Shown here one piece after another: positions 4,926 through 33,700 of a stretch of 64,000 nucleotides of DNA. This stretch comes from Amoebophrya sp. A120 (Eukaryota; Protista; Dinoflagellata): positions 1,903,151-1,967,150 of the forward strand of contig CAJINV010000007.1 in NCBI GenBank assembly GCA_905178155.1, read 5' to 3'. How positions within the stretch are numbered: the stretch's first letter is position 1; each line of letters opens with the position of its first letter. The notes below the pieces were generated by a model that saw only the letters and a program-made list of their open reading frames with translations, was not told where the DNA came from and searched no databases. Made by a program: the position numbers and the translations under genes.

Positions 4926-5474
4926 AAGAGATGATGATGATGATGATGCTGTGGCGAGCAAGTAAAGAAATGTCTTTTATTATGTCGTGCACGTGTAGCT
5001 GCAGATTTTGCTACTTTCCTCTAGAAATTTTGCTTTAATGAAAACAGCCTCCGCGTCGAGCGCGCGACGCAACAAGAAGACCCGCGGTGTGGGTTATGGA
5101 TATGGTGTATCATCTTTTCCGCGTATGTCTCAGATAAACCTACACATTCGTGTCAGTGTCGGTGCTGTGCTTTTGGACTTGGACAACCCCATGTGGTGCA
5201 TTGAAAATGTCATGAACTTCAACTTCTCACAGCGACAGCATGATAGATGCATGACAGAGAATGATAATTATGCGAGTGCCTGCTGATGATTATGTGCGTA
5301 GGAAAAGTACAGGGTCCTCGCACTACACAACTTGAAGGAGAAATAAATCAACGAGCAGGACGTACTATTTCAGGCTGAGGAAGATAAACCTACATGCAAC
5401 TACTACGTTGTGCTCCTACTTTGTGCGCAAGCTCATCTTCACCTTGTTCTCTGCACTGACACTGTGTAGTTCAT

Positions 5475-8400: not shown

Positions 8401-9426
8401 CCACCGGACAAAGATCTGAAACCGATTATGCCGCGCGCGAAGCGACCGAGTAGCAATAATTACTACGGAAGCAATAGCGGCGGTGGGCGCGGCGGGGGCG
8501 GCGGCGGGGGAAATATTAGCGGAGGAGGTTTTGGTGGCAATAACAGTGCTTTTAACCAGTCGCCGCCGCTTGTGTCCTCCTCCTCCTCCACTGGAGGAGC
8601 GCATCAGCAGCAGCGAGGAGGTGAACTATCCACAGGAAAAAACCGATCCACACCCATTCTTTGCATGGCAAACGCATGATTTGCATTTGATAAGTGTTTT
8701 GCATGACAAATTGGATATGGATGGGCTTTTTTCTGTGGATATGAACAACACTTATTTCACAACAACAGCACTGGAACAAACCCTCCAAACGTGATGAACA
8801 GCACCAGTAGCAGTAGCAGCGGAAACAGTGGCGGCCGTGGCCCAGATACTAGTACCGGCGCCAGGGGCGACGAAAATCCGAACTCCATATGTTCGTCCTC
8901 TTACAACAAGATGAATGATTTTGAGCAGCCTGAGAACCAAGATCATCGTCTTCAGGTTCATGAAGTGGACGAGTCCAGTAATGACAAGCAGCACGACCAA
9001 AGGGACTACAACACGACTAGGTCGTCTTGTTGGAAGCCGAAACTGCGACTTTCCCCGAACAACAAGAAAAGCAGCACGAGAGACAGTCCCCAAGCAGCTG
9101 CAGGAGTAGTAGATTCTGGGTCTTCATCTTCTAGTGGTTCTTACGCGACGGCGAGTGAGCAGATGAACAATACCAGCGGGTCCGGTTCACATCACAACGC
9201 TGGAAATGTTGATCCGATCATGCGCAACAGCCGTGGTAACACTAACAAGAACAACAAAGGTATTAAAGGTGGAGGTAAGCGCGGCGGCGGAAAGGGCAAC
9301 AACTACATGCGGGATAGGAATTCGCAAGGGGGGGCTGGTGGTGGCTCCGCGAAAAACAGTCCCGGGCTGGAATCGTCCGCTTCGAGCGGCTCGCCAGCAG
9401 CTGTGCGAGCGGCGGAGCTGTACTAA
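5475..9426 (+). CDS. Mei2-like RNA-binding protein (C-terminal RRM, RRM_2 type), multi-exon
   Basis: Removing the GT-AG intron 6892-7222 and the introners at 7308 and 7665 gives [101 protein letters not shown], the Mei2 RRM3 signature; stop at 9426; 5' end approximate. Confidence 0.85.
7308..7628. mobile_element. Introner family A (non-canonical intron/MITE)
   Basis: TAT...ATA ends, imperfect TIR (AAAAACCCCCCACCCC / GGGGAGGGGGATTTTT), 5-bp direct repeat ACGAC; removal restores the RRM frame. Confidence 0.9.
7665..7985. mobile_element. Introner family A, opposite orientation to the 7308 copy
   Basis: TAT...ATA, TSD CGGGC (7660-7664 / 7986-7990); removal gives FSGQKLHEK in frame. Confidence 0.9.
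8627..8741. mobile_element. Introner family B (short)
   Basis: TATCCACAG...CTGTGGATA TIR, TSD TGAAC; similar to 54408-54521. Confidence 0.9.
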
Positions 9427-12162
9427 GTAGCGGAAGCGGATGTAGTAAAAAATAAAAGTGCTGGGTGTAGTACGAAAGATGTGTTGACGAGAACTTGTTT
9501 GACTTCTACTTCAGCTTCAAAAGGAAAAAGCGGCGCAACAAGATGAAGGAGAGAAAGTCGACTGCAAAAAAACAAAAGAAGATTGTGAAGACATTGTGTA
9601 GTGTAAAAAAAGAAGTCGCGTTAGTTTGAAGGGAGCATAGAAGAGGCATCTCCCCTTTTTTTCTATGAGGATGGGACTATCGAAAAAAATATGAGCATCA
9701 TACCATAGAAGAAACATGAACATGAAGTTCTAATTCATAGCAGAATAAAACGCACGACGGCTACTTAGGTCGAACTACAACGACAGCAGAGAATGGTGAA
9801 TAACCTATCACGGTTTATTGTGTCCCTCTTTGTTTCATAATGATAGTTAGACTTCGTGCTAGCGTTTCTTGTGACTATAGCTGTTCAGCGTTTTGTTTTT
9901 TTTCAGTTAAAGCAATACCCTTTATCTTGGACGAAGGATAAGGCGCGTCATGATATTTGTTTATTTCGAAGAAAATCAAAATGCGTGAAAAAAATTGGGT
10001 GCAGAAGCTGTACCTGTTCCGATTTCTTTTTGTGCTTATTTTTTTACTCTTTTCCTAATTTTTCTTCTTCGTACAGAAGTTCGCATGATTGACTGGGTAG
10101 TGCAGCATGTAATTCGAATGAATATACTTACATACAGATGCCTTATCTCTGCTTCTGAGAAATGGCATCCATTCCTCTGACTTCATTCCGGCATATTCCT
10201 GATCCTTGTATTGCTGCATTTTTAAAGAAGATTTCTATGTGTAATAGTAATTATTTGAGTTGCCGAGCACAAGATTCGAAGAAGATGAACGGCGTTTGAT
10301 ATAGAGTTTAGATTTGCGTCGCTAGTTACGCTATCATGCTCATGCACACTGTGTATGATTGAACTTGCAGAGGACCAAGCTAAGTGAATAATGATTGTTA
10401 TTGTAACTATACCAGATCCACTTTGTTTCAGGCGCGTGCTGGAATCACAATATTATTGTAGACATCTCCATGCTCAAGCAGCTCCAGGTTCAAAATAAAA
10501 AAAAAGTAAATTCAAAAAATAGCTCTGGGTCTGCGTCTGGTGCGCTCTATTACTAAGCTACTAACAAACTATCGATCGTTTATGTTGGTGGTCCTCTTTC
10601 TGATGTTATGATAGTGACTATATTCTCCTCGCTTTATTCCTTCAAGATTGGCAAATGCTATTCATATTCTTAAGTTCTCTTTTGGATAGCTCAGCTGGTT
10701 AGCCAATATGCAAGGCCTTTTTCTGATGTTGTACTATTGTTACTTTTCATTGATGGACGAAGCAAGGAACAACCAAGAGTCAAACACGAAGAAAATTGAC
10801 GGTGAAAATATGAAATTCTGCTTGCCAGTTGCTAACGTTTCGTGTGGCTCTATCGAGATGAAGAACGGCTTTTCAGTTTTGACTTTTTCTGTAGTCATTT
10901 TTTTCTAATTTTGATCAAAGAAATCATTGCCACTCCAATTTCAAAAATCAACTTTCTGGAAAACGTACCCTGCTTGTAGTTGCTCTGATACAGTTTATGT
11001 TTTTATCTTTCAGAGTACCATTCACATTTCACAAATAACAGTAACGGTTTTACGCCAAAAGGCGGCATCTCAGAGTACTCAAAGTAAATTTCCGACTTCT
11101 AATATTTCTATTTATTCCTCGAAACGAAGGCAATATTTTGAAAAGTCAATAAAAGAAACAGATGCGATTTATATGGTGTATTTGGAAGCAGAAGCACTAC
11201 TAACTTTGGAAGCCTCGTCAAGATTTCTGGTTTGTTAAAAGAAAACTCAAAATAACTTACTCAATCAATATATAGACTTCTATTTTCTATTGACGAATGT
11301 GCCCGAGGATCTCTCATGCGACATAATATTCGACCTGAACAAGGTTTGACTCTTGATTGATTTTGATTAGACATTTGGATTTTTGGGGTGAATTTATTAC
11401 GAAGTAGCGATTCCTGTGAAGGAAAAATCAACAAAATGATGTTGGACAATTGCATTCCATTTTCCTGGTGGTTGTTCGTTTCGGAGCCCTTCAAAGATGG
11501 AAGATGATTTTTCGACTCCGCTCCGCTACCGTGTGTACTATCATGTTGATGTTTGTCCGTCTCCCTTCATGAGGACGAAAGTACAAATAGATCCATTTTC
11601 ATTCACGTGCTGGTCGAAAAAATTGATTACCTGAAGACAAGACATTGTATGTGTATGATGTTTGCAGTTGTGTAGTTACTCGGAAGGTCGAAATCTTACA
11701 CGTAACAGGACCCGATTTTTAGTATCAGTATTTACATTTATCTTCTTTTTGGCTTGCAAAATCCGTTGCATATTTACATGAGTTGTTATGTCAGAGTCTT
11801 GAATTCGATTTCGAACCCAATAAACTCCTCTGTGGCAGTAAATAGGTGTCGTTGTCGTGAAGTTACGCATCCATGCTGTCTGGCAGGAGCTCTTCTAGCA
11901 GCTCCAGTCTAACCTGCCGCTTGATCTTTTGCTTTTGTTTTCCTGCTTCCCCTACGACGACGTAGCTAGATGATCGTAGTTCAATTAGTTAAAGACTTTA
12001 ACTAATTGTAAACGGTAAACAAGACGTCGAAAACTAGTACAAAAATGCTGCCGCAATCGTACATACGTGCGAAAAGCAGGCTTCGCTTGGCGTAAAAAAG
12101 ACAAAGAGACGAAAAGAAGTGTTGTTGGAGCGGTCAAGAAAGAACGAGCCGAAAAGCATACC

Positions 12163-15100
12163 ATGGGTTCTTGCCTCGGCACGTGTCTCGCCAGCTGCTT
12201 TGGCGTATGCTACACAAAATCTTAGCTCTCCACCATCACCATGATGATCGCCATACAAAAGTTTTTTTCACTGCTGTGCAAGATGAAGAAAAGGAATTTA
12301 CGGAACGTGAATGGATCGCCATCACCATCACCATCGATCATTCGCGTCGAGTAAATATAATTGGTGTTTTGCATATAATGTATGAGAAAAAAAAAACACA
12401 GTGAGAGCGAGGAACAAGCTCCTGTGGAAGAACAACAACAAGGTTTTCCGTAGTTGCATAAAGCAGTTGCATGGGGAAATGCCTCACCTCCGGCCACGTC
12501 AAGAAAGACTCTACGATGCGGAAGATGTTCGCGTTTCTGCAGCTCTGGAACATCGTCTGGCTGTTCATGTACCGCTGGCTTGCACCGCATTATCAAAAGG
12601 AAAAATCCCCCCTCTCCATACTGAAAAGGTATATTTTTGGAAATTTGTGATGCTGATTTGTGGTCACATTGCAAGAAGGCAACTCCGCAGGCTCCGTCGC
12701 GTTTTGTCATGCTCTTGGGCCTACGGCCGCGCCGCTGTTTATCATGCTAAGCGCCCAGGCCGAAACCCCTCTACTCACACTTGATATGGGCCTGTAGTGC
12801 TCTCCAGCAAGAAAGCTCGGACTTGTGTGCACAAATCCAGCATCGGAAGTTTCGTTTTGATATGGGTTGGGCGGATTTTTCCTTTTGATACGCATGTCTC
12901 GAAGTTCCCGCTTTTCAACCACTTTTTTCTCTTCGAGTTTGGGATCATGGAATGCAACAAAGCAGGACGAGATGATCTTCATGGTGGTAATGCAAGAAGT
13001 GCGACTGCCCCAGGTGGTCTATCCTGTGCAAAATTATCGTACTCGTACTAATTGCAATCATGCATGACGAATCCTGTTTCTTAGCGAAATCAGCATTACA
13101 AATTCCATTTTTCCTTCTGGAAAAAATTGTATTGCGATTTATACTGGTGCGATACTTTTGCAATGCATATGGTCCAGATCAAAGCAAGATCACGGCTTGT
13201 TTTATGCTTGAGAATTACGAAGTAATTCGTTAGCACCAGTGTTGAGTCCATGGAAAAGAAGAGTCGTCTGCTCTCGTCTTCGTCTCGTCCATGTCTTCGT
13301 CATAAGATCTAATTGGTGGGTCGCGCATACCGCAAATAACGCGACGGCACAGGCAAGCGCTCTAGTTTCGTACTGGCCCAGTCTCGGGCGTCTAAAGTCT
13401 CTTACTAGACTAGAAATAGTAAGAAGTTGTTCACGTCAAGAGATCTGGGCTCCTGGCTCGGTTTCCGCATTACATGCGACGAGAGCGGCAACCTCGCAAC
13501 GTCTCTGCCTAGAGAAAAGCCCACTATGGCGCCCAAGTCGTTTTTGCGCAAAATCGAGTGCTCGTTTTGCAGCCAGAAGCGGTTGGCTCACACACCGCGC
13601 AACACTTCGCCCGCGTGTCCGAATTCTGAAGCCTGCAAAGGCGAGTGCTACTACTTCGCGAAAGACGGAGATTTGCAGACGGTGAAGAAGCATCGCACCT
13701 TCGTAGAAGCGACTTACCCCCTACCGAGGCTTCGCCTCGAAGACGCGAGCATCTGCGTCGACTGCAATCTTTGTAAGTTGTTCCCCGACTCCAGAAAGCG
13801 ATCCTGGGTATTTGATAGAGAAGTGGTCGAAGCTTCAAGCTTTGCTTCCAGCGTGGAAGACGATCCGGCATCAGCTCTCAGAACTCTGAAGAAGGCGAAA
13901 GCTTCGTACGAATATTCTGAGAAGTCTCCTCCTACATCTCTTCCGCGAAACTTAGGCAGCTCAGCTCTTGCAGACAAGCAGTCGCCCGCATCTTCTGAGA
14001 AGAATCCGGAAGCTTAAAGCAAAAGACATGCCGTCGCCGTCTGGATCCTTGTCTCAGGGCGTTGCCATGGGTAGCGACACGACCGTCGCTCAACAGGTCG
14101 AACCCGAAACGGCCGTCATCGAGGAGGAAGTCGCCGCAATGCGCGCGCGCCAGTTACTGGACCCCAAGTCGGTCGACTACCCGTTGCCATTCGACAAAAC
14201 CGGGACTGTGCACCGCCCAGACAACTTCGAGTGGATCCCGAGCGACACGATCTTCACCAAGCACGATGTCAAGTCCGTCGCTGTCAAAATGTACACCGAC
14301 AAACAAAGGATCACGGTGGTCCGACGATAACTGACTTACGACGGAGAAGCAATCACTTTGCGCTCCAAGGTGCTACTTTGTCTTTAATCTGTCTTGCATA
14401 TCAAGAGCGATTCACGCATCCGCACAAGCGTGCGTCTTCAACTCCATTCCCATCTTCATTCTCGAAGGTTCAGACCGAGCATCCGGCATACATGGCTGAC
14501 TCCCACGGCGACATGATTCAGAACGTCATCCAGCCCACTGAGACCCAGAGGGCCTGGAAGTGGGAAAACGGCAAGCACATCCGGCGCCTCCGCGCGCTCA
14601 CCATCGTCAGCAACGCACTCGATTACGCCACTTGGGCATACCTGGCGTTTTCCGATTTTCAGGACATCGAGTTGATCGCCAGCATGGCGGAGACAATCGG
14701 ATACGTCCTTGCGGACCAGTCCCGCGGCAAGGCGAAGTTGTGCATGCAGGTCCTCAAAGACTGGCTAGAAGTCCGGTTGGACGACATTCCCGATGGGAAA
14801 GCACCCGACATCGCTATGCGCAGTGCACTTTTCGACTTGAGCGTCGTGCTCTGCCCGCCCTTCGCAAACGCCAGCAAGTGGAAGTCCGCCTTTTGCAGAG
14901 CCAGTTTTGACCTGATCCCGCCCATTGCTACAGTGAGGTCCGTGGATGAAAGCCCGATGATCATCGTAGCGAGGACGCAGGATTATGTAAACGAGATTCA
15001 TGAGAAGAGACAGACTGACTTAGAGTTAGGAAAAGCTTTGCCCGGGCGCGTTGCTGACCAGGAAGGAATGTTGTAAGTCTGCGAAATTCATTTTCAGTGT

Positions 15101-18100
15101 TTTTGTTGAGACGAAAAGTCATCGACGTGCATTTTTTTGAAAAATGTATGCTGGCACTCCAAGAATAATTAAAATTTAATACGATTCCGCGACGCGGTCA
15201 GCTCAAAGCAGTGAGTGAGCATGTCAGCCGAGTTTGTTCGCCGTCACAAGCAAGATCTATGCCACTGCGTTACGATCTACCCGGAGCCTTTCCACGAGAG
15301 AGCATCTCCCTTTCGTCAAAAGTATTATCTTGAGCGAGAATTGTCATCACATGATAACAAACTCTCCTTCGTCTTGTAGTAAAAGTTATTAGTGCCCACC
15401 ATGACGGAACTCGTCTGCTGTGCGTGCTTTGACAAAAAAGATGAGGCTCTCTTCTTCATCAAATGCGCTGGCGCAGACTCCGCCACAGCTTGCGCCAAGA
15501 GGATCGGCATACATTTGCAAACAATGCGAAAAGGACAACGGCGCCATGTCCCACGGACACTTCCACACCGTCAACGTCCTCGACCCAGTTAAAAGCCGCT
15601 GTAAGACATGCAACGTAGCCAAGAACAAAAGCCGCATGAAGCAGGTAGCTTTTCGCTGTTTTCATCATTCTTGTTGCGTGCAGCGTTCATCGTTGTTTTC
15701 CGTCAAATTGGAATTCTCATGTCCCCACCGCACTCCTTCTCAGGTAGAAGATGAGTTGGAGAAAGCGGCTGGCGACAAAAAGGCCATCCAGCTGATAACG
15801 CAAGAAGAAGACTGGTTCCCGGAATGGGTCTGCATGAGTCAAGAAGACAAAAAGGAAGCGCGCCGCGAGTTGAAAAGACCCGCGCTTCAGGAGGTCGACG
15901 TCTCAAAGCTCAACTCACATGACCTTGCCATCGCACAGCAAGCACAGTCAGCGGCGTCTGCGGCCGCAGCCACCGGCGCGAACGCAGCCGCGTCGGAAGT
16001 CAGCAAGACCTTCAAAGAAATGAAGCGAATGAAAGTCGAACACAAAAAGACGAGGCTGATGCTGCTGCCCAAGCACAAAGGAAGCTTTGCCACCTACAAG
16101 AAGTTTCTGAGTAAGGTAGTGACTATTTGTTTTTCTTTTTGCATGACGGTAATGCTAGGCACTTACATTGCGATCGCACATAACTGCTCATCATTCTTTC
16201 CCAAGGTGGTCTTGCACTTCGACGGACAGCCGGTCGCGGTGCTAGCCAAGCGCCACCGCTTCCTCATCTCTTACATCGAGGACTCGTCAGCGCGCTTCTT
16301 GTCCAAGGCACAGCAGAACTCGGAGCCGGCATCCAATCTGTGCTACGCAGCCTACTTCTCCATTCGAAGTAGTGTTTTGTTAGACCTGTGAGCATGGCTT
16401 GTCTTCAGGCAGCCGGGTCCGGGCAAATTTCGACCATTAAAATCGGCATAAAAAACCACTAATATAAAAGTTGGGGCGGGTTGTGTTTCATTGGCTACGT
16501 GGCCTGCCTGGCAAGGGGCCCCATTTTGTTGCCTTCCCATACGTGGCGCGTGGCGCCGAGGAAGGACGGGCCGGGCCCCACCGGCTTTGGTGTTTTTGTG
16601 CCTCCACGGCCCCCGGGGTGTTTTGTTTGAGTTTTTGCCCGCCTCTCAAGCGCATGCACGCCGCGTGCCTTTTCTCTTTCCAGCTCCCGGGCTGCTTTCG
16701 CCGGGCTCCACCTGGATGGCAGCTGGGCCGGTGGGGTCTTCGGCCAGTCTATGTGGCCTCGCCGCGTTTGGGAAGGGGCGACGCGCGCTGGTGGCTTTGG
16801 CGTTTCGACAGGTTTCGTCCCCATCGGCATTGGCGCCGTCCCCCAGTCGGGGTCTTTTCGGAGGGGCGTCGCCGTTTGTTGATGGCCGACAGGGAGTGGT
16901 GGTTGTTGCGAAGGACTGCTGGGTTTGCAATAAACCCAGCAGTAACCTTCGCAATAACCTTTGCAATAATTGTTGCATTAAAAATGCAATAAAATGTGCT
17001 TTAATTTGTTTTCATTGAAATCCTTAGGGATTTCAGTGTTTAACAAATTAAAGCAAATTTTAATGCAAATACTAAACAAAAATTAAACTTAATTTAAACC
17101 ACAAATTACACCACTTTTAAAGCAAAACAACAGGGCCCGGCGAGTGCAGGGGGGGGCGTCGCCTCCGCGCCGCGGGGGGGTGTTTGGCGCGATTATTTCG
17201 GCAAGCAAGACCCGAGGTCCGCAGGTGTGGAAGCAGCCGGCATTTGTCCGGTGTTGCGCCGGATTTGGCCGGCGCGTCCGTGTCGCTTTGGTGTTTCTGC
17301 TGAAGGTGGGGCTGGGGTTGTCGTGTTTTTGCCCTCGGCCGGTTTGTCCTCGTGGGGCTTTGTTGGCCCCGCATTTTTTGGGGGCGAGGTGGACAGGGGC
17401 CAATGGCTCACCCGATCACCCCCATCCCGGCCCCGTTCCAGCTTGATTCCATCGAAACCCATAGGACCGGGGCGGCCGGGCCCCCCTGCCTTGGTCATGG
17501 CCAAGCCGCGCGGCGTTTTCGGTGTGCCCTTTGTGGGGTTTGGGGCCGGCTCTGTGGAATCAAAGTCATAACTTCGGCCAAGAAATTAAAGCATTTTTAT
17601 GCTGACACTACACCGGGCAGCTTGCCCGGGCCCGGCAGGCTGATTGTCTGTGTGCAGTTGTAGATTTGTGAGCATGCGTTCTATTCTCACCGCGCCCGTC
17701 TTCTCTAGGTTGCCATCGAGAAATCAAGCTCACGTCGCACATCTCCGAAGCCAAGAAAGCTCTGTGGTTCATGTTTTTCCAGCCACGCTTTTCGTTCGTC
17801 ACTGCCTGTAATTTGTCGAGCCCGTCCATCATGTCGGCCCTCATGAACGTCATTGAGTCCGACACGTCTAGAAAGCGCACGCAGCAGGATCAAGGTCAGG
17901 GTGGTTATTACGGCAAGTCTCAGAACAACAACGGCAAGGGCAGCTCGACTTTCTACCCGGCACAGCCCGCTTACGACTACTGTCCCCAGGTCCCATCCTA
18001 CACAACGCCACAGGCAGCAGCTCAGGGAGGAGGCGGCAATGCCTCCGGCATGACCAAGGAGCAGAAGCAGGCCGAAATCGCGCGTATTCTGAGCCAGGTG

Positions 18101-21100
18101 GTCAACAACCCCCAAGGAGCAGAGCTGAATTTTGAAGCTGCAAAAAAGATCGATCGTGGCCTCTCGTGCAAATTTTTCGAGGCGAACGGTCATTGCCGCA
18201 GTTGCTACATGGCAGGCTTTACGTTTCAAAAGAAACATGAAAAAGGCCTGAAAAGTTGTGAACTCGCAGGCACGTCTTTGCTGGGGTAATGCAAAGCGAG
18301 TGTCTTCGTAAGAGTTTCGCTCTGGCTGCATAAGAAACCCATTCTCAGGCATCCCCTGCCATATTATCTGTGCGAACTGCAAGTCGGCCAAGCACTGGCA
18401 GTCCCAATGCACAGCTCCGTCGGCAAAAGGCAAGCCAGGAGGTGGAAAGCCAGGTCAGCAGCAGCAGCAGCAGGGTCCGCCCATGATGAAAGGTGCTCCC
18501 CCAGCGCAAGCATACGCCCAGGGCGTCCCTGGCGCAAAGGGAGGGCCGCCGAATGTAATGCGCGCCCCGTCGTGGTAGTCAACGGCTTGAACAGCTCGCC
18601 ACATGTACAGGAAATCAGCTGTAAGATGAAACTAGATCGACGCTTTTTTGTTTGTGTTTCCAGTGGCATCGATGCTGACACTTAATTGCCATCCCATTCG
18701 CGCCATCGCTCAGTCAGGAGCTGCTTTCATACAGTCTGGCGCTCTGTTCACATTCGAAGTGTGCTTCTCGTCGTACTTTTCGTCATATTGCATGTTGGTG
18801 CGCATCGTTGTAATCTTTGATATGGCCCTTCGCTACAGATCAGACCACCGGTCGGCGTTCTTGGCAACTGCTCTCACATCAGATCAGCCGAAGGATGTCG
18901 TTGCTTCAGATGAACCCCAAAAGAGCGGCGAGCTCAGCTCTTGCAACTGAGTACGCTCAGGAGCGCGAGAAGGCAAATCCCAAGCCTCAGAAGAAAACGA
19001 AGGCAGACTCCGACGCAGTCAAAAAAGCGCTCGCAGAAGCAGCTGTGGCCGACATTGAGCCAGACGAGGCCCCTTTGTACTTAGCAGAAGGCACTTCTTG
19101 GCGTGATTTAGATGATCCATCACGTAGCATCGTTTCTTCTAAATTCCTTTTCGTCTCATCTGTATTTTTTTCTCAGGTAGCATAGCACAGGCTCCAGCAG
19201 GGGGCAATCAAGCAGTGCCCGCGCTGTCCAAGTCAAAAAGCACTTCGTCCGCCAGCAGCGACTTCGTCTTCGCCGAAGCCGTGTCAGATTTTGAAAGCTT
19301 GAAGCCACCTGCATCGTCGGCGTCATCAAGTTCAAAGCCCCAGGTCGCAGTCGTCGCGCCGGCGGAGAGAAAAGCCGCGGCAGCATTGAGCCAGCACATG
19401 TCCTCCGGCATGCCATCGCGTGAAGCTGATGACTCGAAGTTGAAGGGTCAGATGAAGTCTTCCGAAGTTTTCTCTCAGAAAGATTCTACTGAAGTTAGCA
19501 CTTTCCCACAGGGTCCAAAGTGGTTCGATGCTTTCCCGTTACGCGACGACGTAAGAAAGCAACTTCTCAAGTCGTCTTATGTTTTTGCAAGCAGTAGCAT
19601 CGCACCGTCTTCGTGTAAAAATTTTACGAACATTTTAGCAGTTGTAGTTCCTCGAGTGTGTAGACAACTCGGAGTGAAGTTATGGCCACTCACCAATGAG
19701 CTGGGGCGCAGTTTGTTTTTCGCGACCTTTGCTACTTACAAGTCGTGCCATTTCTCGCACTTGAACGACAGAACGAATAAAGTCAACTGGTCGGCGTTCA
19801 AAAGCCTAAGTGCAGCCATCGGAGCTTACAACTCCTGTCGTCCAGAGTGTGACACGTATTCGCTACGCTACAAAAGCAGACCCTTCGCACGCATCTGGGA
19901 AGGATTCAAACGCAATGCAACTTTGCCTCTAAATCAGACCTACAAACTTCAGCCCACTAGATACCAAGTAGACTTAGTCCTCACAAAAGCGCGCCAGGAG
20001 TCCCACATCCACTGTTGTCCTCCCGGGTTCCTGTCTCATCAGCCTCCAAATTATTTGGAACCTTATTTAAATTCGAAGCAAGCCCTCTCGGCGGCGCAAG
20101 ACTACCAAACTGCGCTTCTGGCAGCGATGCAGTTCTACGGCGTCCGTCGAGGAGCCGAGATGCGGGAGTTGCTAACCGACAGCCTAGCTCCGAAGTATCT
20201 TTTTCCCGACGCCCCAAAGGAGGCGGAGCGTTACTGGTGCTTGCAAGTAGTCAAGGCAAAAAATGACGTTTATGCGCAAGGCAATTTTTGCGTTTTGCCT
20301 CTGTTTTTGACACCGCGCGCCACAGCTTGGATGCGCTGGGCTGGGGCTTTCGTCCGATTCTTTTTCAAAAAGGAGTACTTCGCAGGGAGTTGCAGTTTAT
20401 TTTTCGTAATAGGCAGCACGCGCATCAAATCTCGCGGCACTCCCTTGTCGCAAGATTGCCTCAGAATAAAGCTAAAAGCACTGCTTGGGCAGTATCTACT
20501 CCCGAAAAGCAAAAAACTGCCCGGCCCAGTCGCGTTAAGACGAGCAGGAGCCACTCGCGTGGCCTCCATGGATAGAGCAGTGGCTTATAATCAGGGTGGC
20601 TGGAGAAGCAACAAGATGTTGGATGCCATTTATGCCCCCTTAACACGCGAGGACTTAGCGCGGTCAATGCAAAAGCATTTCCCAGAGTCAGCAGCTCTGG
20701 CTCACTTACGGCGCGCAATAGTTAAAGTTGAAGAAGCTTATGTGAAGAACGCTTTCAATTTAGGCAGTCTCCTCATCGGCCTGCAAGACATCCCAGTGAG
20801 TGTACCGCGCGAAACTTTTGCGCGTCTAGCGCCAGGGCTGACAAGGGCAGCCAAGTTGAACTCTTTGAAGGATGGTTTTCACAACGTCTACTACCGTCTT
20901 GGACTAAAAAAATAATCATTTCGCTTTCCCACTGCCTTGTCGCTGACAAAGCACCGTCGGGAGTTTGGCCCAGTCGTTTGCTCTCCCATTCAGGCACGCA
21001 GCCGTCTTTCTGTTGTCGTTCACTTCAATTGTCAACCACCAGTCACTAGCGTGGAGAGAAAGCCCGGCAAATGGAGCAGCCCCGGGAGTACGTGGCCGAG

Positions 21101-24100
21101 AGCGACCCAGCAGTTCCCACGAGAGAAGGGAGAGAACTAGGCATAGTTCCAGACCCAGGCATGTCCATTCGGGACTACATAAGTATGGGACTGCCTGCCG
21201 CCAACTTGTCCGCCCTGGAGTTTCTGCAGTCGCAGGAAGGGCCCGACGACAAGTGGCGGCCGGTCGAAGACTACCTCACGTGGCAGGGGACCGCGCTCAA
21301 TCCCTTCATGTTGGCACGCTACGGGCTCAGCCCTGCCTTCATGGAGCGTTTTTTCGGTGGTGTAAAATTCGACGTGACAGTGGACGACTTCAAAGTCAGC
21401 CAGGTCAAGAATTACAGCGGAGCCACGACCTACGAAGATTATTTCACCGAAGAAGTCTGGCGCTTTATCCACAGCAAAAAAGTGGTAGTGTACGAGGACG
21501 ACGAGCCCCCGGATCTTATGATCGCCCCGGGAACAATACTTAAGCAAAGAGCGAAGTACAGGTATGTTCTGTTTCTCATGACACTCATGTCTTCTAGCGC
21601 ACGTCATAGCCCGCGTCATCTTCTCATCATCACTTAGGTTGGTGGCCGACTGGTCCAGCCCGCAAGTAGCCGCCAGCCAGATGCTGTACAGTACACCAGT
21701 CCAGTATAGCTGCTGGCGGTCTCTCTTCGAAAAGCTGTGTCCGGGAGCTCTGGCGTTTGGGCTCGACCTGGCCGATTGCTACGCACACTGGCCAGTGCAT
21801 CCCAGTCAGCGTCGCCTACTAGGACTAGACATACCGCAGACGGGAGCGAAAGCGTGCCATTGCTTCGTGCCATTCGGTATTTCCTAAGCTTTTCATGCTT
21901 GTTTTCACACTTGTGACTACGCATATGCTTCGAGTCTCATAGTCGCGATTTCTCGGCAGGTATATCACCTGCCCCCGGCAAGAATGATGAGGCGATCAAG
22001 GAACTCACTCGTATCCAGTACCGGGCCGGATTAACGGCCTGGCTACTGGATTACGTCGATGATATAAGGGGCGTCCTCCCCGCCCCGTGCAGCACGTCAA
22101 TGGAGCACACCGCGCGCGAATTCCAAAAAACATTCTTCATGTTTTCGCTGTTCGGTTGTCAGCTACATGAAAAACCAGGAAAGAAAATCCCGCCGACAAC
22201 AAAGCTTCCATGGCTCGGGTTCGAGTGCGATACGGAAGCAATGACTATGGCGATAGAAGAAGAGCGCAGAGAGCAGTATGCGATCGACGCGCAGCAGTTT
22301 CTAGATGAGGTGTCTTCTTCTCCCTCGCTAACAACGACAGCCAAAGCGGCGGCAAAGATTTGCGGCAAACTGCAGTCAATCACCTTCATCCTAGACGGCC
22401 CGCTCAGGGGCCTGCAAGACGCGCTCAACGCCTCCGGCTGCTACCGGCTGTGGCAGTCGTCGCGGGATCACAGTCCCAAAGTCTCGCTGTCGCACGAGGT
22501 CACTCAAGACCTGAAGTGGTGGGTGCACGAAATCAACCAAGTGCCGAAACGCAAGCTCCACTACTACGGAGGCAGGTGCTTCCTGTGGGGCCAGCATGTG
22601 TTAGAATTCGGAACGCAATTTTTGAACTCCATCCCGCCGTCGGCCTTTCTCGTCATCTATGGCGACGCCGCAACGGAAACCGGATGGGGCGGCACATGCA
22701 GAGGAGTGCACTACCAGGGTTTCTTCCCGCAGTGGATCAACCAGCACGACATAAACGCGAAAGAAAGTGCAACCCTCCTCATCGTCTTGGAGTGCATGGA
22801 AGCGCGCGGCGAGCTCCCACCAGGAATGCTCGCGCTGTATTATACGGATAACTTCACAGCAAAGAAGTTCGCAAACAAAGGCAAGCACACCAACCCGGCA
22901 TACTGGGTGGTTCTGCACCAGAAGACTGAAGTCATTGCGCCAGCGCAACCAGCTGGAGCTCATCGGGGCCAAAGTGCGCGGCTTGCGCAACATCGTTGCT
23001 GATTGTCTCAGTCGTTTCGACGATCACGTCTTCTCTTTCTGTGATCCGGAGCCCGAGCGTTGCCTAAACAACCGGGCATGGAGTCACATCATGAAAAAAC
23101 TGCCCGACATCGCCATCGAGTGCTTTGCGTCGTTAGACGACTCCGACAAGACTTCGCGCCTAGCCACGAAGTTCACGTCCCAAAACATGCCGCTCCAGAA
23201 CTTCGAGCAAATCAGCAAAGAAAAGTCGCGGTGGTTTCCACCAGGCGACATCGTCTACCCCGCAGTAAAATTTTTGCAAAAAACAGCACAGGGCATCCCG
23301 CTCGCGAACCGTCCGAAGTTCGCGGCTTTCCTTCCAAAAGCAGGAGGCAAATTTGCTCCGATGACATCCTCCTTCTACAGAGCAAAAATCTCGCACAAGA
23401 GGGGCGCTAAGATCTTCAACAGCAAAAATCTCGAAAAGGTCGACATGCCGGCCGACGATGACTACGAGGTCTTTCTTTCGGTGCCCATCGAGCAATGGTC
23501 TTCCACCACAAATCTCATCACGATCGAGAATCCACAGCACACGAAACTACTTCAAAACGCAGTCTTTCGCAGGTCTCTCAATCTACCAGGAAACACCGTC
23601 TGCAAATGCATCGCCCAAGCGTCGGAGCAGTTGATCGCGCATTTGTGTTGCACTGATCCGGTCGCGCCTAAAGGAGTAGCAGAGTTGGTCTTTGATAGGT
23701 GGCCATGTGCCAACGCTTATCCCTTACCAGCTTCCCAGAAGCCATGCAAATCGTTTCAAGTCATGCATCCGATTGCTAACGTTCACTCCATGTGTCATCC
23801 AGGGCCGCCGAAGGCGGATAGAAACTACGACACATACCAGGAGCGCCTAGATGCTTTCAATTCATCAATGTACAGCTTAGCAGTCTATTGCAGCAGCAAC
23901 GGGGTCAAGTCTGTGGCAGTCCCGTTACGCATTGGCTGCGGTCTCAATGGCGGCAAGATGTGTGATTACGCTCTCACTTTGGGCCGCTTCTTCATGAAGT
24001 GCCGAAGCTTCGGCGTCATTGTGCGACTCTATGAGAATCCCGACTCTCTGTGAGCATATTCATGCGCACGCTTTTTCGGCCCAAGAGCCGTCACAGTTGT

Positions 24101-27100
24101 CTACTCTTACCATCCCAAATGGTGCCCACTGTGCCCCATATGCGTCTGCGCGCAAGGAGTCGAACTCGTGTTCTTAGCACATTTGGTCGCAATGTGTGAC
24201 GGGTTCCTCGTAGCCAGGCGGCTAGTCGGATCGTATGGGTGCTGGGCAAACTACACTCTTCGTATTTCTCCAGGACGATAAATTTTATGCTTGAGAATTA
24301 CGAAGTAATTCGTTAGCGCCAGTTTTGAGTCCATGGAAAAGAGGAGTCGTCTGCTCTCGTCTTCGTCTCGTCCATGTCTTCGTCATAGGATCTAATTGGT
24401 GGGTCGCGCATACCGCAAATAACGCGACGGCACAGGCAAGCGCTCTAGTTTCGTACTGGCCCAGTCTCGGGCGTCTAAAGTCTCTTACTAGACTAGAAAT
24501 AGTAAGAAGTTGATAAAGCCGCTTTTTTCATCCCACCCACCTCGCCCTGTGAGGAAGTCACATACAGGGATTTTGTTCACTCATCGTCACTGTTCGTTGT
24601 GTGAGTGTGTCTATCGTCTATGCATGGAAAACGTCTTTTCCATGGTCTCGCCTTACGCTTCTCACTAGTCGCCACGAGCTCCGTTCAGCGTTGCGTCTGC
24701 GCGCAAGGAGTCGAACTCGTGTTCTTAGCACATTTGGTCGCAATGTGTGACGGGTTCCTCGTAGCCAGGCGGCTAGTCGGATCGTATGGGTGCTGGGCAA
24801 ACTAAACTTTTCGTATTTCTCAAGGACGATAAACTTTCAACAGCAAGCGACGGAGCGGGTGTTTCTCTCGTTCGCGATCCTCTTTCTGATCTTGATTTTC
24901 CTCTCCGCCTATCAAGTGTAAAAATGTCTGGGTCTGGAAACTTGTGATGCTGGGTGGCGTCTCATGATGAGGCTACAAATGCTGGCTCAGCATGACAAGT
25001 TTCTGAGCTCCTAGGTGTTGCCCCCTATTCTACTGCACGACAAACTGCGCTTCTGCATCACAGAAAAACGGAGCTCTTGGGTAACGTGCGTGACAGATTT
25101 AGCAGTCATGCCAGACAAGCATGACAAACATGAATTCTTCCAGACCCAGACACTTTTACAGTTGATACGGCCATCGGCGCCACGAAGATTGCGCTCAACA
25201 AGTTCTGGGGCGCGAAGCTGCTGACCCCGGTGTTTCTTCCGTTCCTATATCAAATGTAAAAATGTCTGGGTCTGGAAGAATGCAACTTGTAATGCTGTCT
25301 GCGGATTCTAAAAATATCTGTGTTGCATGAGCAGCAAGAGGACTCAGCTCTTGGCACGCGGAGAGGGCATTTCTCATGCGTAATTAGCATCGAGCTCGAG
25401 AAGCTCTCAAAAAATCTGTGATGCTAGCACCAGCATCACAGACCTCACGGGTCATGCAAAATGTGCATGACAAGTCCCGACTCTTCCAGACCCAGACATT
25501 TCTGCATCTGATATCCTATTCGCGTTTTTGATTCCGAACGACTTTTTCGGGCTGCAGTCGTGGCTGTACTACACCTGCGGGGGGGTCTCGTTGTTTTACC
25601 TGACCGCGCAAATGATGATTTTGTACGACTTGGGGCACAGCTGGAACAAAACCTGGGTGGAAAACGCGTTGGAAGCGCAGCGGGAGGCAATCGTGAACCC
25701 GAACGCGTTTCTCGGAGGGGGCGGTAATCGCAATCGGGACAACAATTCGCATTCCAACTTTTTCCGCCAATTTCTCCAATCCAGGCCAGGAATCCTGTGG
25801 TACTTGGGAATCCTCCTTGCGACCATCATCTTCCTGACGATCGCCGTCCTGGTATCATTTGTAAAAACGTCCCCACCGCATAGTCAAGTTTGGAATCTAG
25901 CAACACATCAAATCTCCAAGTTTTGGGAGCTGTGCATGACAAGTCTCCCTCTGCAGTGTAGTGCTGATTGGCAAGAGAAGCTGCATGAGAAAGTCATTTT
26001 CACATCCTGTTTATAGCATTACAGATTTTTCCAAAACACGACTGGAAATTCCTCTCATGCAGCTGCGCATTACAAATGTTCCTGTCATTGCGCATTTGCA
26101 TGACAACTCTGGTGTGGGGACGCTTTTACTCAGGATACCTGGCCGTGATTTACCTTCCGTTCGTCGTGTACGCGAATGAACCCAACCAGTACGTCATCCT
26201 GATTTCGCATTTTCTAAGCGTCGCCTTGTTGATCCTCTCCGCCAGCGACTGGTGCAAAAACGGTGCCATTCTACCCAGTGCACTACTGGTAGCATACTTC
26301 GCGTGGCTACAGTGGCTGATGGTGCTGCAGCGCCCGGGGATAGTGGTCAATGGCCCCGCCGCCCAGCAGGGTCGTGGGTCTTATCTTGGAGGTGCGCGGC
26401 AAGCAGATGAACACCCCCAGCACCAAGAAATCCTGAGCGAGCCCCGTGGGACGATGCCGCCGACTTCTACTTCTTTTCTCCTACCTCTCTCGGCACAGAG
26501 ACGATCATATATTTCCAACGGTGTTATCCGGGCTTTTGCGGCTGATAGTGTTGTACTTTCTCCACAGGAGCAACATCATGCAGTGTCGCACCAGAATGAT
26601 CTTCTTCAATCCAGAATCATCAGCTACGAATACAGCGATCACGTCCCGATGACCGCAGATCGCTATCTCTCCTGGTGGGTCGGGTTGACGATCATGCTGG
26701 TTTGTTTTTCCCTTTTTCTAAGGAACCCGAGCCTGTTGCAATTGGAAGACGCTGAAACGGCGGAGGACCGGAACTTCGGCGCTCGGAATGGGGAAGAGGA
26801 CTTGGAGCAGTCTGACTCCAGCGACGAGGAGCAGCAGGCCACGGCTGTGGTTGGACCGGAAGACGGAGATGATCATACGACCGGAGATCTTCAAGATGGA
26901 GACGCCGGTGGCCGAGAAGAGAACACCTCCAACCGTATCCAAGAAAAAAACTGTGTTGGTGTAACTATCTTTGGCAGACAGCATCACAAATTTGCTCTAC
27001 ATGACAGAGAAAGCCTGTCACGCGTGGCTTGTAAGGGAAAACACACATGAAAAGAGAACTTCGTGGCTATCTGGCATGACAGGTGTAACTTTGTTGCGTG

Positions 27101-27681
27101 TTCTACATTACAGATTTACGCTTACGCGACAGCTTTTTTCTTGCATAAACCGTCGGCGCCGTTTAATCACGACGGGGGGACCGCCGAAGGAAGAAACGCT
27201 CTACTTCTTGACGATCCACGCGGTATGGGAGTGTCAGGATTGAAATTGTCAAAGTTGAAAATGAAATAGTTTGTCATGCATAAAATGCATGACGCGAGGC
27301 GCGTGTGTTGCAGAGCAGGCAAGTGAGGCCGATTGTAAGCCTGTTTGGGCTTAGCGCTCGAGCTGCTGAAGTAGTATGACAAAATCAGTCTTCTTTGCCT
27401 AAGCAGCATGGCAAACTGGATTTAAGGACTACCAAAATTTGTCATGCGCCACTTGGAAACTGGGTTGCAACTGGCATCCATTTTATGCATGACAAATCAT
27501 TTCAACTTTGTCGATTTCAACTCTGACGCATCCATACGCGGCTTCGGCGTTTTACTTCCGCTTCCTGCTGTACCAGAGACAAGACTTGGTTGGCTACTGC
27601 ATTCTAGCGGTCGGCTTGTACGCAAACATAGTCCTGTTTGGCTGGGCGCTGGTTCGCCCGCAGATTTACCCGGATGAGTAG
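12163..27681 (+). CDS. Serinc/TMS1 (serine incorporator) family multi-pass membrane protein, interrupted by 7 introners and the YR retrotransposon
   Basis: N-terminus MGSCLGTCLASCFG; reconstructed motifs CFQQQATERVFLSFAILF, LNKFWGAKLL, FYLTAQMMILYDLGHSWNKTW, NGAILPSALLVAYFAWLQW and C-terminus FGWALVRPQIYPDE* match the Serinc consensus. Confidence 0.85.
12591..12890. mobile_element. Introner family A
   Basis: TATCAAAAGGAAAAATCC...GGATTTTTCCTTTTGATA TIR, TSD CGCAT. Confidence 0.9.
13020..13169. mobile_element. Introner family D (150 bp)
   Basis: TAT...ATA, TSD TGGTC; highly similar to 32324-32473. Confidence 0.9.
13200..13429 (+). repeat. Split direct repeat A1
   Basis: 230 bp; about 4 mismatches (counted by eye) versus 24283-24512. 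Confidence 0.95.
13526..15076 (+). CDS. Retroelement 5' ORFs (Cys-rich Zn-finger-like N-terminus plus helical domain), structure unresolved
   Basis: MAPKSFLRKIECSFC...CPNSEACKGEC...CVDCNLC (13526-14017); ORFs 13968-14330 and 14231-15076 with protein-like composition. Confidence 0.5.
15401..18578 (+). CDS. Gag-like protein with Cys-rich fingers and a CCHC zinc knuckle, multi-exon
   Basis: Frame-compatible introns 15645-15743, 16116-16205, 16369-17708 (GT-AG) and 18216-18348 (GC-AG); C-x2-C-x4-H-x4-C knuckle CANCKSAKHWQSQC at 18369-18410; stop at 18576-18578; the 5' part appears frameshifted. Confidence 0.7.
16405..17643 (+). other. ~1.24-kb imperfect rod-like fold-back inside a Gag intron
   Basis: Symmetric pairing about the loop at ~17024-17026 (GCTTTAATTTGTT..GAAATCC/GGATTTC..AACAAATTAAAGC); ends CAGGCAGCCGGGTCCGGGCAA / TTGCCCGGGCCCGGCAGGCTG; several internal helices checked, with many G-U pairs. 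Confidence 0.85.
18817..20915 (+). CDS. Tyrosine recombinase (YR) of the retrotransposon
   Basis: GVRRGAE (catalytic R), KAKND, VALRRAGAT (HxxR box with H replaced by V), GGWRS...AIY (catalytic Y at 20631); upstream exon joined by the GT-AG intron 19124-19176. Confidence 0.88.
21071..24053 (+). CDS. Pol-like polyprotein: RT - RNase H - DIRS-type adenine methyltransferase-like - Macro domain (2 introns, one apparent frameshift)
   Basis: KYRLVADW, GLDLADCY, VPFGISPAP, YVDD (22052-22063), WLGF; RNase H motifs GDAA, INAKE, YTDN, NIVADCLSR; MT-like IECFAS...WFPP; Macro IAHLCC..KGVAELVFDRWP...SVAVPLRIGCGLNGG; introns 21562-21637 and 21877-21959; +1 shift near 22905. Confidence 0.9.
24141..24282 (+). 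repeat. Split direct repeat B1
   Basis: 142 bp, near-identical to 24692-24833. Confidence 0.95.
24283..24512 (+). repeat. Split direct repeat A2
   Basis: Near-identical to A1; directly abuts B1. Confidence 0.95.
24692..24833 (+). repeat. Split direct repeat B2 (right terminus)
   Basis: Near-identical to B1; followed by CTTT and then Serinc exon sequence. Confidence 0.95.
24910..25167. mobile_element. Introner family F
   Basis: TATCAA.TGTAAAA.TGTCTGGGTCTGG TIR; TSD CCGCC/CGGCC (1 mismatch); frame restored (FLSAIGATK). Confidence 0.88.
25248..25513. mobile_element. Introner family F
   Basis: Same TIR type as the 24910 copy; TSD TCCTA. Confidence 0.9.
25853..26137. mobile_element. Introner family G
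   Basis: TATC..GTAAAAACGTCCCCA / TGGGGACGCTTTTAC..GATA; TSD CCTGG. Confidence 0.88.
26936..27147. mobile_element. Introner family E
   Basis: TATCCAAGAAAAAA...TTTTTTCTTGCATA; TSD AACCG; reverse-complement homolog of 32555-32763. Confidence 0.9.
27224..27536. mobile_element. Introner family C
   Basis: TATGG..GTCAGGATTGAAAT TIR; TSD CGCGG; similar to the 29136 and 31444 copies. Confidence 0.92.
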
Positions 27682-30734: not shown

Positions 30735-33700
30735 GTGCCGGCGATCTGGTTTCTTCTTTGTTTCGTGGCCTACTACTTGTTTGCCCAAGAAAAAGATCCT
30801 GCTCCTTGTGCGAAAACGCATCTTGACCACGTCTTTCATCTGATGTTTTATCATATGCTTTGTAATTGTAAACTACAATTCGCCGAAGACAATCTAAAAA
30901 CCCAGGCAGCTCAAAAAGAACCACATACCATGGTTTTGGTTTTGCTCTAGAACATCTGATGCTTTGATGCGCCGCACCCACAGAAACTGAAACGTACGAC
31001 TACCACAATATCGATGAATGAAATGCACAAGAAAATGCGGGTCTCCGGGGACGTCGACGAGGCATCTTCTATGGGCCAGCCCGCGGAAAAAATCCGCAAA
31101 GTCAAAAACATGGAGTGCCGCGGCCGAGAGGGTGTTGAGCGGGCCGCCGGTGCGGCGGTCGGTGGGAATGGGACGCGGACGGGACACGAGGAACAAGGAC
31201 AAGACAGTAAAAAAGCGTCCAACTACACTATCCTCGATAGCCGGAGGCTTGCTCTGGATCGCAACTTCGTCGTGGAACTACAGAAGTGCAGGGCCTCCGT
31301 TCTTCCTGCAAAGTTCGTGCCAAATCAACATGGTTCAAGCACAGGAGGGGCACGACCCCGCCACCATGGAGGGACTTCTGACCCACCCCGCCAATCGGGT
31401 CAGCGAACCACTGATGCTGCTGCGATATCTCGCAGCCGAGGACTATGGATGCGTCAGGTTTGAAATCGACAAAGTTGAAATAACTTGCAATGCATAAAAT
31501 GCATGACCCGCGGTACGTGTGTTGCAGAGCAGGCAAGTGAGGCCTATTGTAAGCCTGTTTAGGGTTAAAGCTCGAGCTGCTAAAGTAGCATGAGAGAATC
31601 GCTCGTCTTTGCCTAAACAGCATGACAAACTGGATTTAGGGACCGCCGAAATTTGTCATGCGCCACTTGGAAACTGGGTTCCAACTGGCATCCATTTTAT
31701 GCATGACAAATTATTTCAACTTTGTCGATTTCAACTCTGACACATCCATAAGGACTCCGAAGTTTTGTACGACGAACTGGACAATTACTACAGCGACACA
31801 ACGGAGTCAATATCTACACAACGACAGAATTCTACTACCCGAAGCCTACACTCTCCCGAAGGGGCCCGGGAGCTGGTGGAGCAAGTAGAAATACAAGAAG
31901 ACCACCGGGAATGGGAAACGAGACCTACATTGATGGCCGCGCTCCACCAGAACCAGAAGAACGAGAAGATGAACTCAGGCGGACATCAGCAGCACGAGCT
32001 TTTCGACCAAGCCACGAGCTATTCCCTGAAAATGAACCACGACCCCCATCCAATTTGATGTCATACCAGAAACATGTAGGAAATTCTATTCTGTGCTTGT
32101 CATGCAAAATTAAACAAAAAGTGAATCATGGGGAAGAATTGAAAATTTTCAGGGAATACGAGCTCGGCGACCACCAGCCCAGTGTACCGAGTGAATCGCA
32201 CCCTGGAGTTCCGTTGGCGGTCATTTCTGATGCGGGAGTTTGTGCGAACACACTCGTTTCCGAACGGGCAGCGGAATAAAGACGGAACCGAGAATTTTTG
32301 GAAAATTGGAGACGGTGCTTACATATGCTCTGCAAAAGTATCGTATTCGTACTAATTGCAATCATGCATGACAAATGTTGTTTCTTAGCCAAATCAGCAT
32401 TACAAACTCCATTTTTCCTTCTGAAAAAACTTGTATTGCAATTCATACTAGTACGATAATTTTGCAATGCATATTACACGTACTGGGGAAAAGACGCGTG
32501 CGTGCGGGACCTCGCGCGCTGGTCGGTGGAGCACCCGCTCGGAGCCAAAGTGCTTATGCAAGAAAAAAACTGTGTAAGTGTAAATCTGTGATGCACAAAA
32601 TGCAACACAGTTATACTTGTCATGCTCGACATGCATGATCGGCTCGCTTCCTATGTGTTTTCCCTTACTATCTGTGCATAACAAGTTTTACCTGTCATGG
32701 CAGACGAACTTGTGATGCTGTTTTCCGAAAAGACTTACACTTACACAGTTTTTTTCTTGGATAGTGCTCCTGCCGCAGTTAGTGTGGTTTCACACTGACG
32801 ACAGACAATACACTGAACAAAAACCGAGAAGAATTTCATCTCAAACGCTAACGCTAACACAGCTTGTGTCAGCTCCATCTTCTACTTCGTTGTCGCCGAA
32901 TGAAGGAACGAATATTGCGGAACAGTCTTCGGAGACGACGAGGAAAACGCTCACCAGCAACGTAGCAGACAATAACGATTATGGCCATGGTGCTGAAGGT
33001 CCTGCTAGACGTACAAACCAGTCTGATCAACAAGCGCAAGCGCTCTCCCTGTACGCGACCCTGCAGCAGTGCGAACAGACGAGGCTGGGTAACTTGAACG
33101 TTGTCGATTTCTTTCTGGATCATGCAGATGTTATTGGTGACACGAGGAACGAAAATGACACCGTCAGTGGGACTAGCGATAGTCCTCCAGCAATGGGACG
33201 AGCTCGCCAGCACGAGCAGCAGCGTGGAGCTGCTTCTGAAACTACAGGAGAGCAACACGGTCGTCCCTTGAAGCTGTTGAAGGAGGTGTCTTACATCTGC
33301 CTTCCGAAGAGCTGCGAAAAATCCGAGAACACGCGTTTTTGGACGGAGTTCTTCACCTTCGTCGCGGAAGCGCGGACCGTCGCGGGACTAGTTTCCTGGC
33401 CGACGTGGAGCAGGCTCTTCGATGCTTTAACCCCATCGGGAATTGGCTCACCGAGGTGGCTCCACGACTTCCCTCGTGTGAGCAAAGTCGAGCCGTTGGT
33501 GGTCGGGTCTTTTGAGACAGTTGCAGTAGGAGACCATCACGGGAAAGCAGTAGTTCCTGCTGCAAGACGACAGACCATCACGGGAATTCTTCGTGCCTCT
33601 GCCTGGCTGAACCATCGGCAGCAATGCCTCGCGAGGGATTTGTTTATCAAGCCTGTGCGGGAATCGAAACGCGACTTTGCACAAAGAGCCGAAATAAAGA

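Follow-up and report, generated by a model that had tools for sequence, protein, structure and literature searches.

A tyrosine recombinase retrotransposon with eight predicted introns, two of them in its reverse transcriptase, in Amoebophrya sp. A120

Introduction

Retrotransposition is expected to strip introns from the sequence it copies. How, then, could a retrotransposon come to carry eight of them, two in its reverse transcriptase (RT)? This question is raised by a stretch of 64,000 nucleotides (nt) from the parasite Amoebophrya sp. A120 (assembly GCA_905178155.1, contig CAJINV010000007.1, positions 1,903,151 to 1,967,150 of the forward strand), which we call the window. At 13200–24837 of the window, an 11,638-nt element with the features of a tyrosine recombinase (YR) retrotransposon lies inside an exon of a host SERINC gene. 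All coordinates below are positions in the window, and the features of the element are on its plus strand unless stated otherwise. From the DNA sequence, we propose that the RT copies unspliced RNA while the element's proteins are made from spliced RNA, a reading to which we assign a probability of roughly 0.6.

Occasional introns in YR elements have reportedly been mentioned before, by Goodwin and Poulter in 2004 and by Poulter and Butler in 2015. The literature found by our searches does not describe introns in the open reading frames (ORFs) of DIRS-order elements, and the word "intron" is absent from the main text of three papers cited here (PMC6681497, PMC3783388, PMC3266345). Intron retention has been called highly unusual and a trait of Penelope-like elements (PMC8557442).

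Results

The firmest of the predicted introns lie in pol. One, of 76 nt (21562–21637), splits the conserved RT motif KYR|LVAD, and the other, of 83 nt (21877–21959), splits VPFG|ISPAP. A profile of 22 relatives, from which the window was left out, served to score the in-frame junction alternatives. The predicted junctions ranked first of 43 and first of 21, respectively (402.5 bits versus 394.9 and 385.2), and the profile alignment is gap-free at both motifs. In a second test, an aligner that ignores splice signals was guided by four relatives. At the first site three of the four gave a 76-nt insert and the remaining one 79 nt; at the second, three gave 83 nt and one gave 77 nt. Two further apparent introns in the tail were seen with a single guide and were dropped. 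We regard the two as real inserts in conserved motifs and as predicted introns, a prediction as firm as DNA allows.

Repeat comparison gave the element's layout as A1-ORFs-B1-A2-B2. The split direct repeats A1 (13200–13429) and A2 (24283–24512) are 98% identical, and B1 (24141–24286) and B2 (24692–24837) are 97% identical. This layout is known from Ngaro, PAT and VIPER elements (PMC6681497, PMC8547959). Both ends of the element share a T-core of 3–4 nt with the target and with the internal B1|A2 junction, and ends with such a core and no target duplication match the account of DIRS ends (PMC7192593, PMC3266345). The B1|A2 junction, which has imperfect dyad symmetry, is the predicted recombination site. 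When the element is removed, the split SERINC exon (13170–24909) reads through in frame; Pfam Serinc is matched above cut-off on an exon downstream of the element, and the single mismatch in the core is silent in the SERINC frame.

Because removal restores the host frame, no target sequence is duplicated and the T core is shared, we take the present intron-bearing copy to be the daughter of a transposition rather than an old source locus. It also appears to be a young insertion, since its repeats differ at only 8 positions per 376 nt and at none in the inner 237 nt. All eight mismatches are confined to the att-proximal parts (p ~0.001, post hoc). With its YR, its RT and RNase H motifs, its split repeats and its lack of a target duplication, we consider the element a real YR retrotransposon that bears introns; this architecture suggests transposition through RNA.

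The remaining predicted introns lie upstream of pol. A 98-nt GT-AG intron in the accessory gene ORF2 (14370–14467) has an acceptor ranked 26 of 802 and the best donor of seven in-phase alternatives. In the gag-like gene, two introns of 99 nt (15645–15743) and 90 nt (16116–16205) have a T content of 0.38–0.39, against 0.13–0.22 in the adjoining gag exons, and an acceptor rank of 2 of 802; both are likely real. The third (16369–17708) must be removed to keep the frame. It holds a nested non-coding element of 1223 nt (16413–17635, with no strand assigned) that has terminal inverted repeats of 14 nt, matching at 13 positions, a 3-nt target duplication and an AT-rich internal palindrome; without this insert the intron is about 114 nt long. 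The fourth is probably a GC-AG intron of 79 nt (18270–18348), and so, in the YR gene, is the fifth, of 86 nt (19091–19176).

Two of these donors required a choice. For the fourth intron, GC-AG with either donor, we prefer 18270 to 18216, which is probably 54 nt too early, because the intervening 54 nt are A-rich and keep a C-x2-C-x10-H spacing that recurs in a gag-like ORF of a metagenomic relative, L001. For the fifth, 19091 is probably the donor rather than a GT at 19124, because it scores 8.8 versus 2.2 with a donor matrix that includes our own choice of 18270. The five gag and YR introns are argued for mainly by composition, signals and frame, and are likely on these grounds. A preliminary description of this DNA had listed seven frame-compatible introns in a retrotransposon and had called them canonical rather than introners, the inserts with TAT...ATA ends known from this host. 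The nature of the element, the type of intron, the GT-AG or GC-AG ends and the compatibility with the frame all stand, and the two RT introns are exactly as described; the donors at 18216 and 19124 were probably misplaced, and the intron at 14370–14467 was overlooked, as were a stop and two frameshifts in this copy.

Taken together, the eight inserts have the marks of spliceosomal introns: GT-AG or GC-AG ends, a pyrimidine tract, the AG|G context of the host and a frame restored on removal. All eight acceptors fall in the top 0.1–8.2% of 802 AGs (leave-one-out ranks). GT or GC follows directly after each of them, compared to 8.9% of the other AGs in the element, and the AG|GT context is shared with the two canonical host introns that we checked, in a Mei2-like gene, which are longer (331 and 240 nt). 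With the nested insert set aside, the revised lengths are 76–114 nt, and the introns make up 6.6% of the element. None of the seven short introns folds better than its shuffles (z −1.4 to +0.6) or forms a hairpin, and among the eight inserts we saw no transposon ends, no TAT...ATA hairpin and no 5-nt duplication. They are also mutually unrelated, with only 2 of 28 pairs reaching a local alignment score of 20. We conclude that the inserts are likely spliceosomal introns of the canonical host type. Because they lack both hairpins and likeness between pairs, they look older than the copy that carries them.

Could the introns instead have been gained where they now stand, in a long-resident or dead copy, or be inserts that are never spliced? 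The copy is indeed broken, and the host acquires introns rapidly (PMC7789003). However, the near-identical repeats and the intact SERINC flanking frame leave little time. The inserts, moreover, show neither transposon ends nor mutual likeness, their removal brings back the exact frame, and they bear the splice signals of the host. We consider this explanation very unlikely. Eight unrelated introns are unlikely to arise in the short time available to the copy, and therefore the introns most likely transposed with the element. The transposon that landed inside intron 3 and the 6.6% share of introns in the element also count in favor of our reading.

An RT that accepts unspliced templates has a precedent. 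The RT of DIRS-1 in Dictyostelium accepts spliced as well as unspliced RNA and acts in trans, so unspliced templates are possible (PMC7192593). In the cycle we propose, Gag, YR and Pol would be produced once host splicing has taken the introns out, and the RT, probably nuclear or acting on nascent RNA, would copy the full-length unspliced transcript. The missing ends would then be rebuilt from the internal B1-A2 junction, possibly that of a sister molecule. Finally, the YR would act on the joined B|A junction and a T-core target, and their recombination would leave no duplication. Mismatches clustered near the att sites would be expected from ends built off another member's internal junction, and not from passive ageing.

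The same ends could serve a route through DNA, at least in part, in which the YR excises a circle and reinserts it in a Crypton-like manner and the introns escape reverse transcription altogether. In principle a YR can run its recombination in reverse. The element's ends are arranged as an imperfect inverted repeat with the T core at its center, as YR sites are (PMC3212892), and RNase H is frameshifted in the present copy. Yet the element has kept split repeats and the motifs of RT and RNase H, which would be useless to a DNA route, and its 8 mismatches are uneven, none of them falling in the inner 237 nt. Because these features are kept and the mismatches are confined to the att-proximal parts, templating by unspliced RNA fits better than DNA excision, which we think unlikely.

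Relatives of the element place these introns in a wider setting. A search with RT exon 3 yields 117 relatives at E<=0.001, and the named close ones are from Amoebophrya A25 and AT5. In a FastTree phylogeny of 67 rows, picked from 119 by how well they cover the RT and without labelled DIRS or PAT references, the window falls on a long branch in a 22-row clade with Amoebophrya A25 and AT5, marine proteins and three metagenomic sequences (L001, L002 and L003, each ~25% identical). L001 has an unbroken ORF of 1250 codons, and L003 has two intron-like inserts. In L002, a related YR element (3091–5632), Pol is open once eight inserts of 49–63 nt are removed, with one stop and one frame offset at the chosen boundaries, which are approximate. 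All eight are strong hairpins (z −3.2 to −7.8) of non-canonical type, one of which has look-alikes at 7294 and 8621, and they show that a Pol of this kind can harbor hairpin introns. A further relative, P0008, has its own in-frame insert about four codons from an RT intron site of the element. Shared intron positions were considered and rejected, given this offset and a difference of 1–3 nt between the nearest sites of L002 and L003. Probably, then, the ancestor was intronless and each lineage acquired its host's type of intron; those of the present element would have been gained within its lineage and kept short.

Such variation could also arise if the RT were simply unselective. Slow or inefficient splicing would pass intron-bearing RNA to it often enough that each intron would be present in some copies of the family and absent from others. 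In keeping with this, DIRS-1 complementary DNA occurs both spliced and unspliced (PMC7192593), Amoebophrya apparently lacks U1 small nuclear RNA (PMC7789003), and intron numbers vary from none in L001 to one in P0008, two in L003 and eight in L002. Holding all eight introns over many cycles would nevertheless demand a strong bias, since intron loss is nearly irreversible, and we find an unselective RT rather unlikely. More general than our proposal, and held only tentatively, is the idea that unspliced nuclear RNA is the routine template of RT throughout this marine clade, which would thereby inherit any intron type that its host can splice, canonical AG|G introns here and non-canonical hairpin introns in L002.

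Several observations weigh against selective copying of unspliced RNA, or against the introns on which it depends. The first two gag introns are in frame and stop-free, so the frame does not demand them and only signals argue for them. None of the five gag and YR introns has a homologue at its junctions in word-indexed protein searches with the YR and gag ORF. The copy is damaged, with a premature stop at 14328 in ORF2, a frameshift near 15500 in the gag-like gene and a +1 frameshift at about 22886–22919, inside RNase H. Gene conversion between the repeats could maintain their identity, in which case the copy would be older than it seems. Among 118 relatives, the first RT intron site is covered without interruption in 40 and the second in 72, counts that are biased toward intronless ORFs and may include relatives that come from RNA; none of the 118 has an intron at the same RT sites. 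A marker intron in DIRS-1 can be spliced out before reintegration, in an assay that selects for this (PMC7192593), and retention is therefore not obligatory in the DIRS order. Finally, the metagenome and viral scans yielded no sister copy, and intron-free daughters may exist. Of 362 candidates in the metagenome scan, 3 were confirmed, each ~25% identical; the viral scan confirmed 0 of 171. RT exon 3 found no match in a word-indexed search against proteins of 633–2000 amino acids, and neither did the YR or the gag ORF. A 23-nt exact match between the left end of the element and a viral contig (L004) was set aside as chance, having no further similarity around it.

Pfam named none of the element's genes above cut-off, and the exons alone match no RT family. 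The first are an accessory Cys-rich ORF of 163 amino acids (13526–14017; no family above cut-off) and ORF2, in two exons (14028–15076; no family found). The gag-like gene (15401–18578) has a Cys/His-rich N-terminus, a predicted coiled region and C-terminal zinc knuckles, with a zf-CCHC_5 match under the Pfam cut-off (E=0.005). The YR gene (18895–20915), interrupted by its one predicted intron, has no Pfam match; its Atlas features point at 0.97 to ALOG/phage-integrase clusters, and it aligns with the corresponding N-terminal portion of a YR-pol gene model from Amoebophrya AT5 (E=8e-6). Its R, K, xxR, W and Y motifs align with an AT5 protein (P0007), and the His of HxxR is replaced in both.

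Pol (21071–24053) has a DIRS-type RT with the motif YVDD, followed by RNase H, a degenerate methyltransferase-like region and a C-terminal macro-like domain. RVT_1 was matched at E<=0.01 by 6 of 15 scanned RT relatives, in 3 of them above cut-off. The acidic motifs of RNase H align with those of relatives, with the frameshift of the present copy falling before the last one. A hidden small intron was tried as the source of this frameshift and rejected, as all four alignments show a one-base shift. The methyltransferase-like region aligns with the C-termini of relatives, 2 of 15 of which match Dam weakly and below cut-off; the window's own sequence has no methyltransferase family match. At the end of Pol (23500–24053), at least 9 of 11 PDB hits (E 0.8–1.5) are macrodomain proteins and one Atlas cluster scores 0.90. 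Weak matches that include TARG1/OARD1 and viral macrodomains hint at a macro-like domain here. Single-sequence folds were unusable, with a predicted local distance difference test score of 35 for the macro-like domain and 33 for the YR. YR (18838) and pol (21049) each have their own ATG after a T-rich spacer that ends in AG; these AGs could be trans-splicing acceptors that divide one transcript into mRNAs.

The surroundings of the element are rich in introners. Across the window, 17–20 inserts start with TAT, end with ATA and have paired ends, the hallmark of Amoebophrya A120 introners (PMC7789003). The element's introns sit in the same type of genome but differ in lacking the TAT...ATA hairpin and the 5-nt duplication (PMC7789003). 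Our survey of the window's inserts bore out the preliminary description in finding no TAT...ATA introner inside the element, but not in giving that absence a meaning. A uniform density predicts 3.8–4.4 introners there (Poisson P 0.01–0.02). However, 2 of 21 introner-free gaps in host sequence reach 10.4 and 11.5 kb, and a 1901-codon open frame at 32716–38418 is introner-free over most of its length, so we rejected the absence as a signal. With host gaps of such length and hairpin introns in the L002 Pol, it carries little weight.

Host genes in the window combine several kinds of insert. The gene at 6700–9430, which from a motif we take to be Mei2-like, carries both canonical introns and introners. 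The SERINC gene (~12170–27680) has at least seven TAT...ATA introners in addition to the retrotransposon, and the downstream exons that we examined are still open. The ends of the element (13200–13240 and 24797–24837) pair in a duplex of −23 kcal/mol, equalled in strength in 1 of 500 shuffles. They begin near TAT and finish near ATA, and their pairing is at the weak end of that of the window's introners (−23 to −57). The YR site explains this pairing, although paired ends could also allow the element to be spliced out of SERINC. That the whole 11.6 kb is spliced from the SERINC transcript like a giant introner is a bolder addition, and we think it quite improbable.

Discussion

Where does such an element belong? 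It has the order gag, YR and RT/RNase H together with split repeats. The same gene order is found in VIPER/TATE elements, whereas in Ngaro elements the YR lies downstream of pol; here it lies upstream. VIPER/TATE of kinetoplastids also share the A1...B1-A2-B2 repeats and have an A2-B2 unit that is SIRE-like (PMC6681497). They belong to another host lineage, and the present element apparently adds methyltransferase-like and macro-like regions. Its own A2-spacer-B2 (24283–24837) is a 555-nt unit resembling SIRE, the VIPER derivative (PMC6681497).

PAT-like and SymbioDIRS elements share A-ORFs-B-A-B ends, a YR and an RT-RNase H, and perhaps also a methyltransferase-like region (PMC3266345, PMC5890265). 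SymbioDIRS also occur in dinoflagellates, where their YR/Pol order is shuffled, and the source annotates them with intronless gene models (PMC5890265). The present element differs from both in its eight predicted introns, two of them in RT, its macro-like C-terminus and its two accessory ORFs, and no cytosine methyltransferase was seen in it. Ngaro elements have split direct repeats and YR integration in common with it but, as described, no methyltransferase; the introns are a further difference (PMC8547959, PMC3783388). Penelope-like elements likewise keep introns after retrotransposition, but their RT is of an unrelated clade (PMC8557442); a GIY-YIG endonuclease and pseudo-long terminal repeats were looked for in our element and not seen. 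Unlike a Crypton, it has an RT. In layout it appears closest to PAT, VIPER and SymbioDIRS and is not assignable to one of them.

To have moved recently with all eight introns, including the pair in RT, a YR retrotransposon must either sort spliced RNA, for its proteins, from unspliced RNA, for copying, or copy in the nucleus. If the tentative idea about the whole clade is true, Penelope would no longer be the only retroelement lineage founded on keeping introns; a second one would have them even within the RT core. Such elements would carry introns from place to place in the genome, and ORF-based searches for transposable elements miss families of this kind. Genomes and RNA-seq have been published for the host, a parasite kept in culture, which makes the question directly testable.

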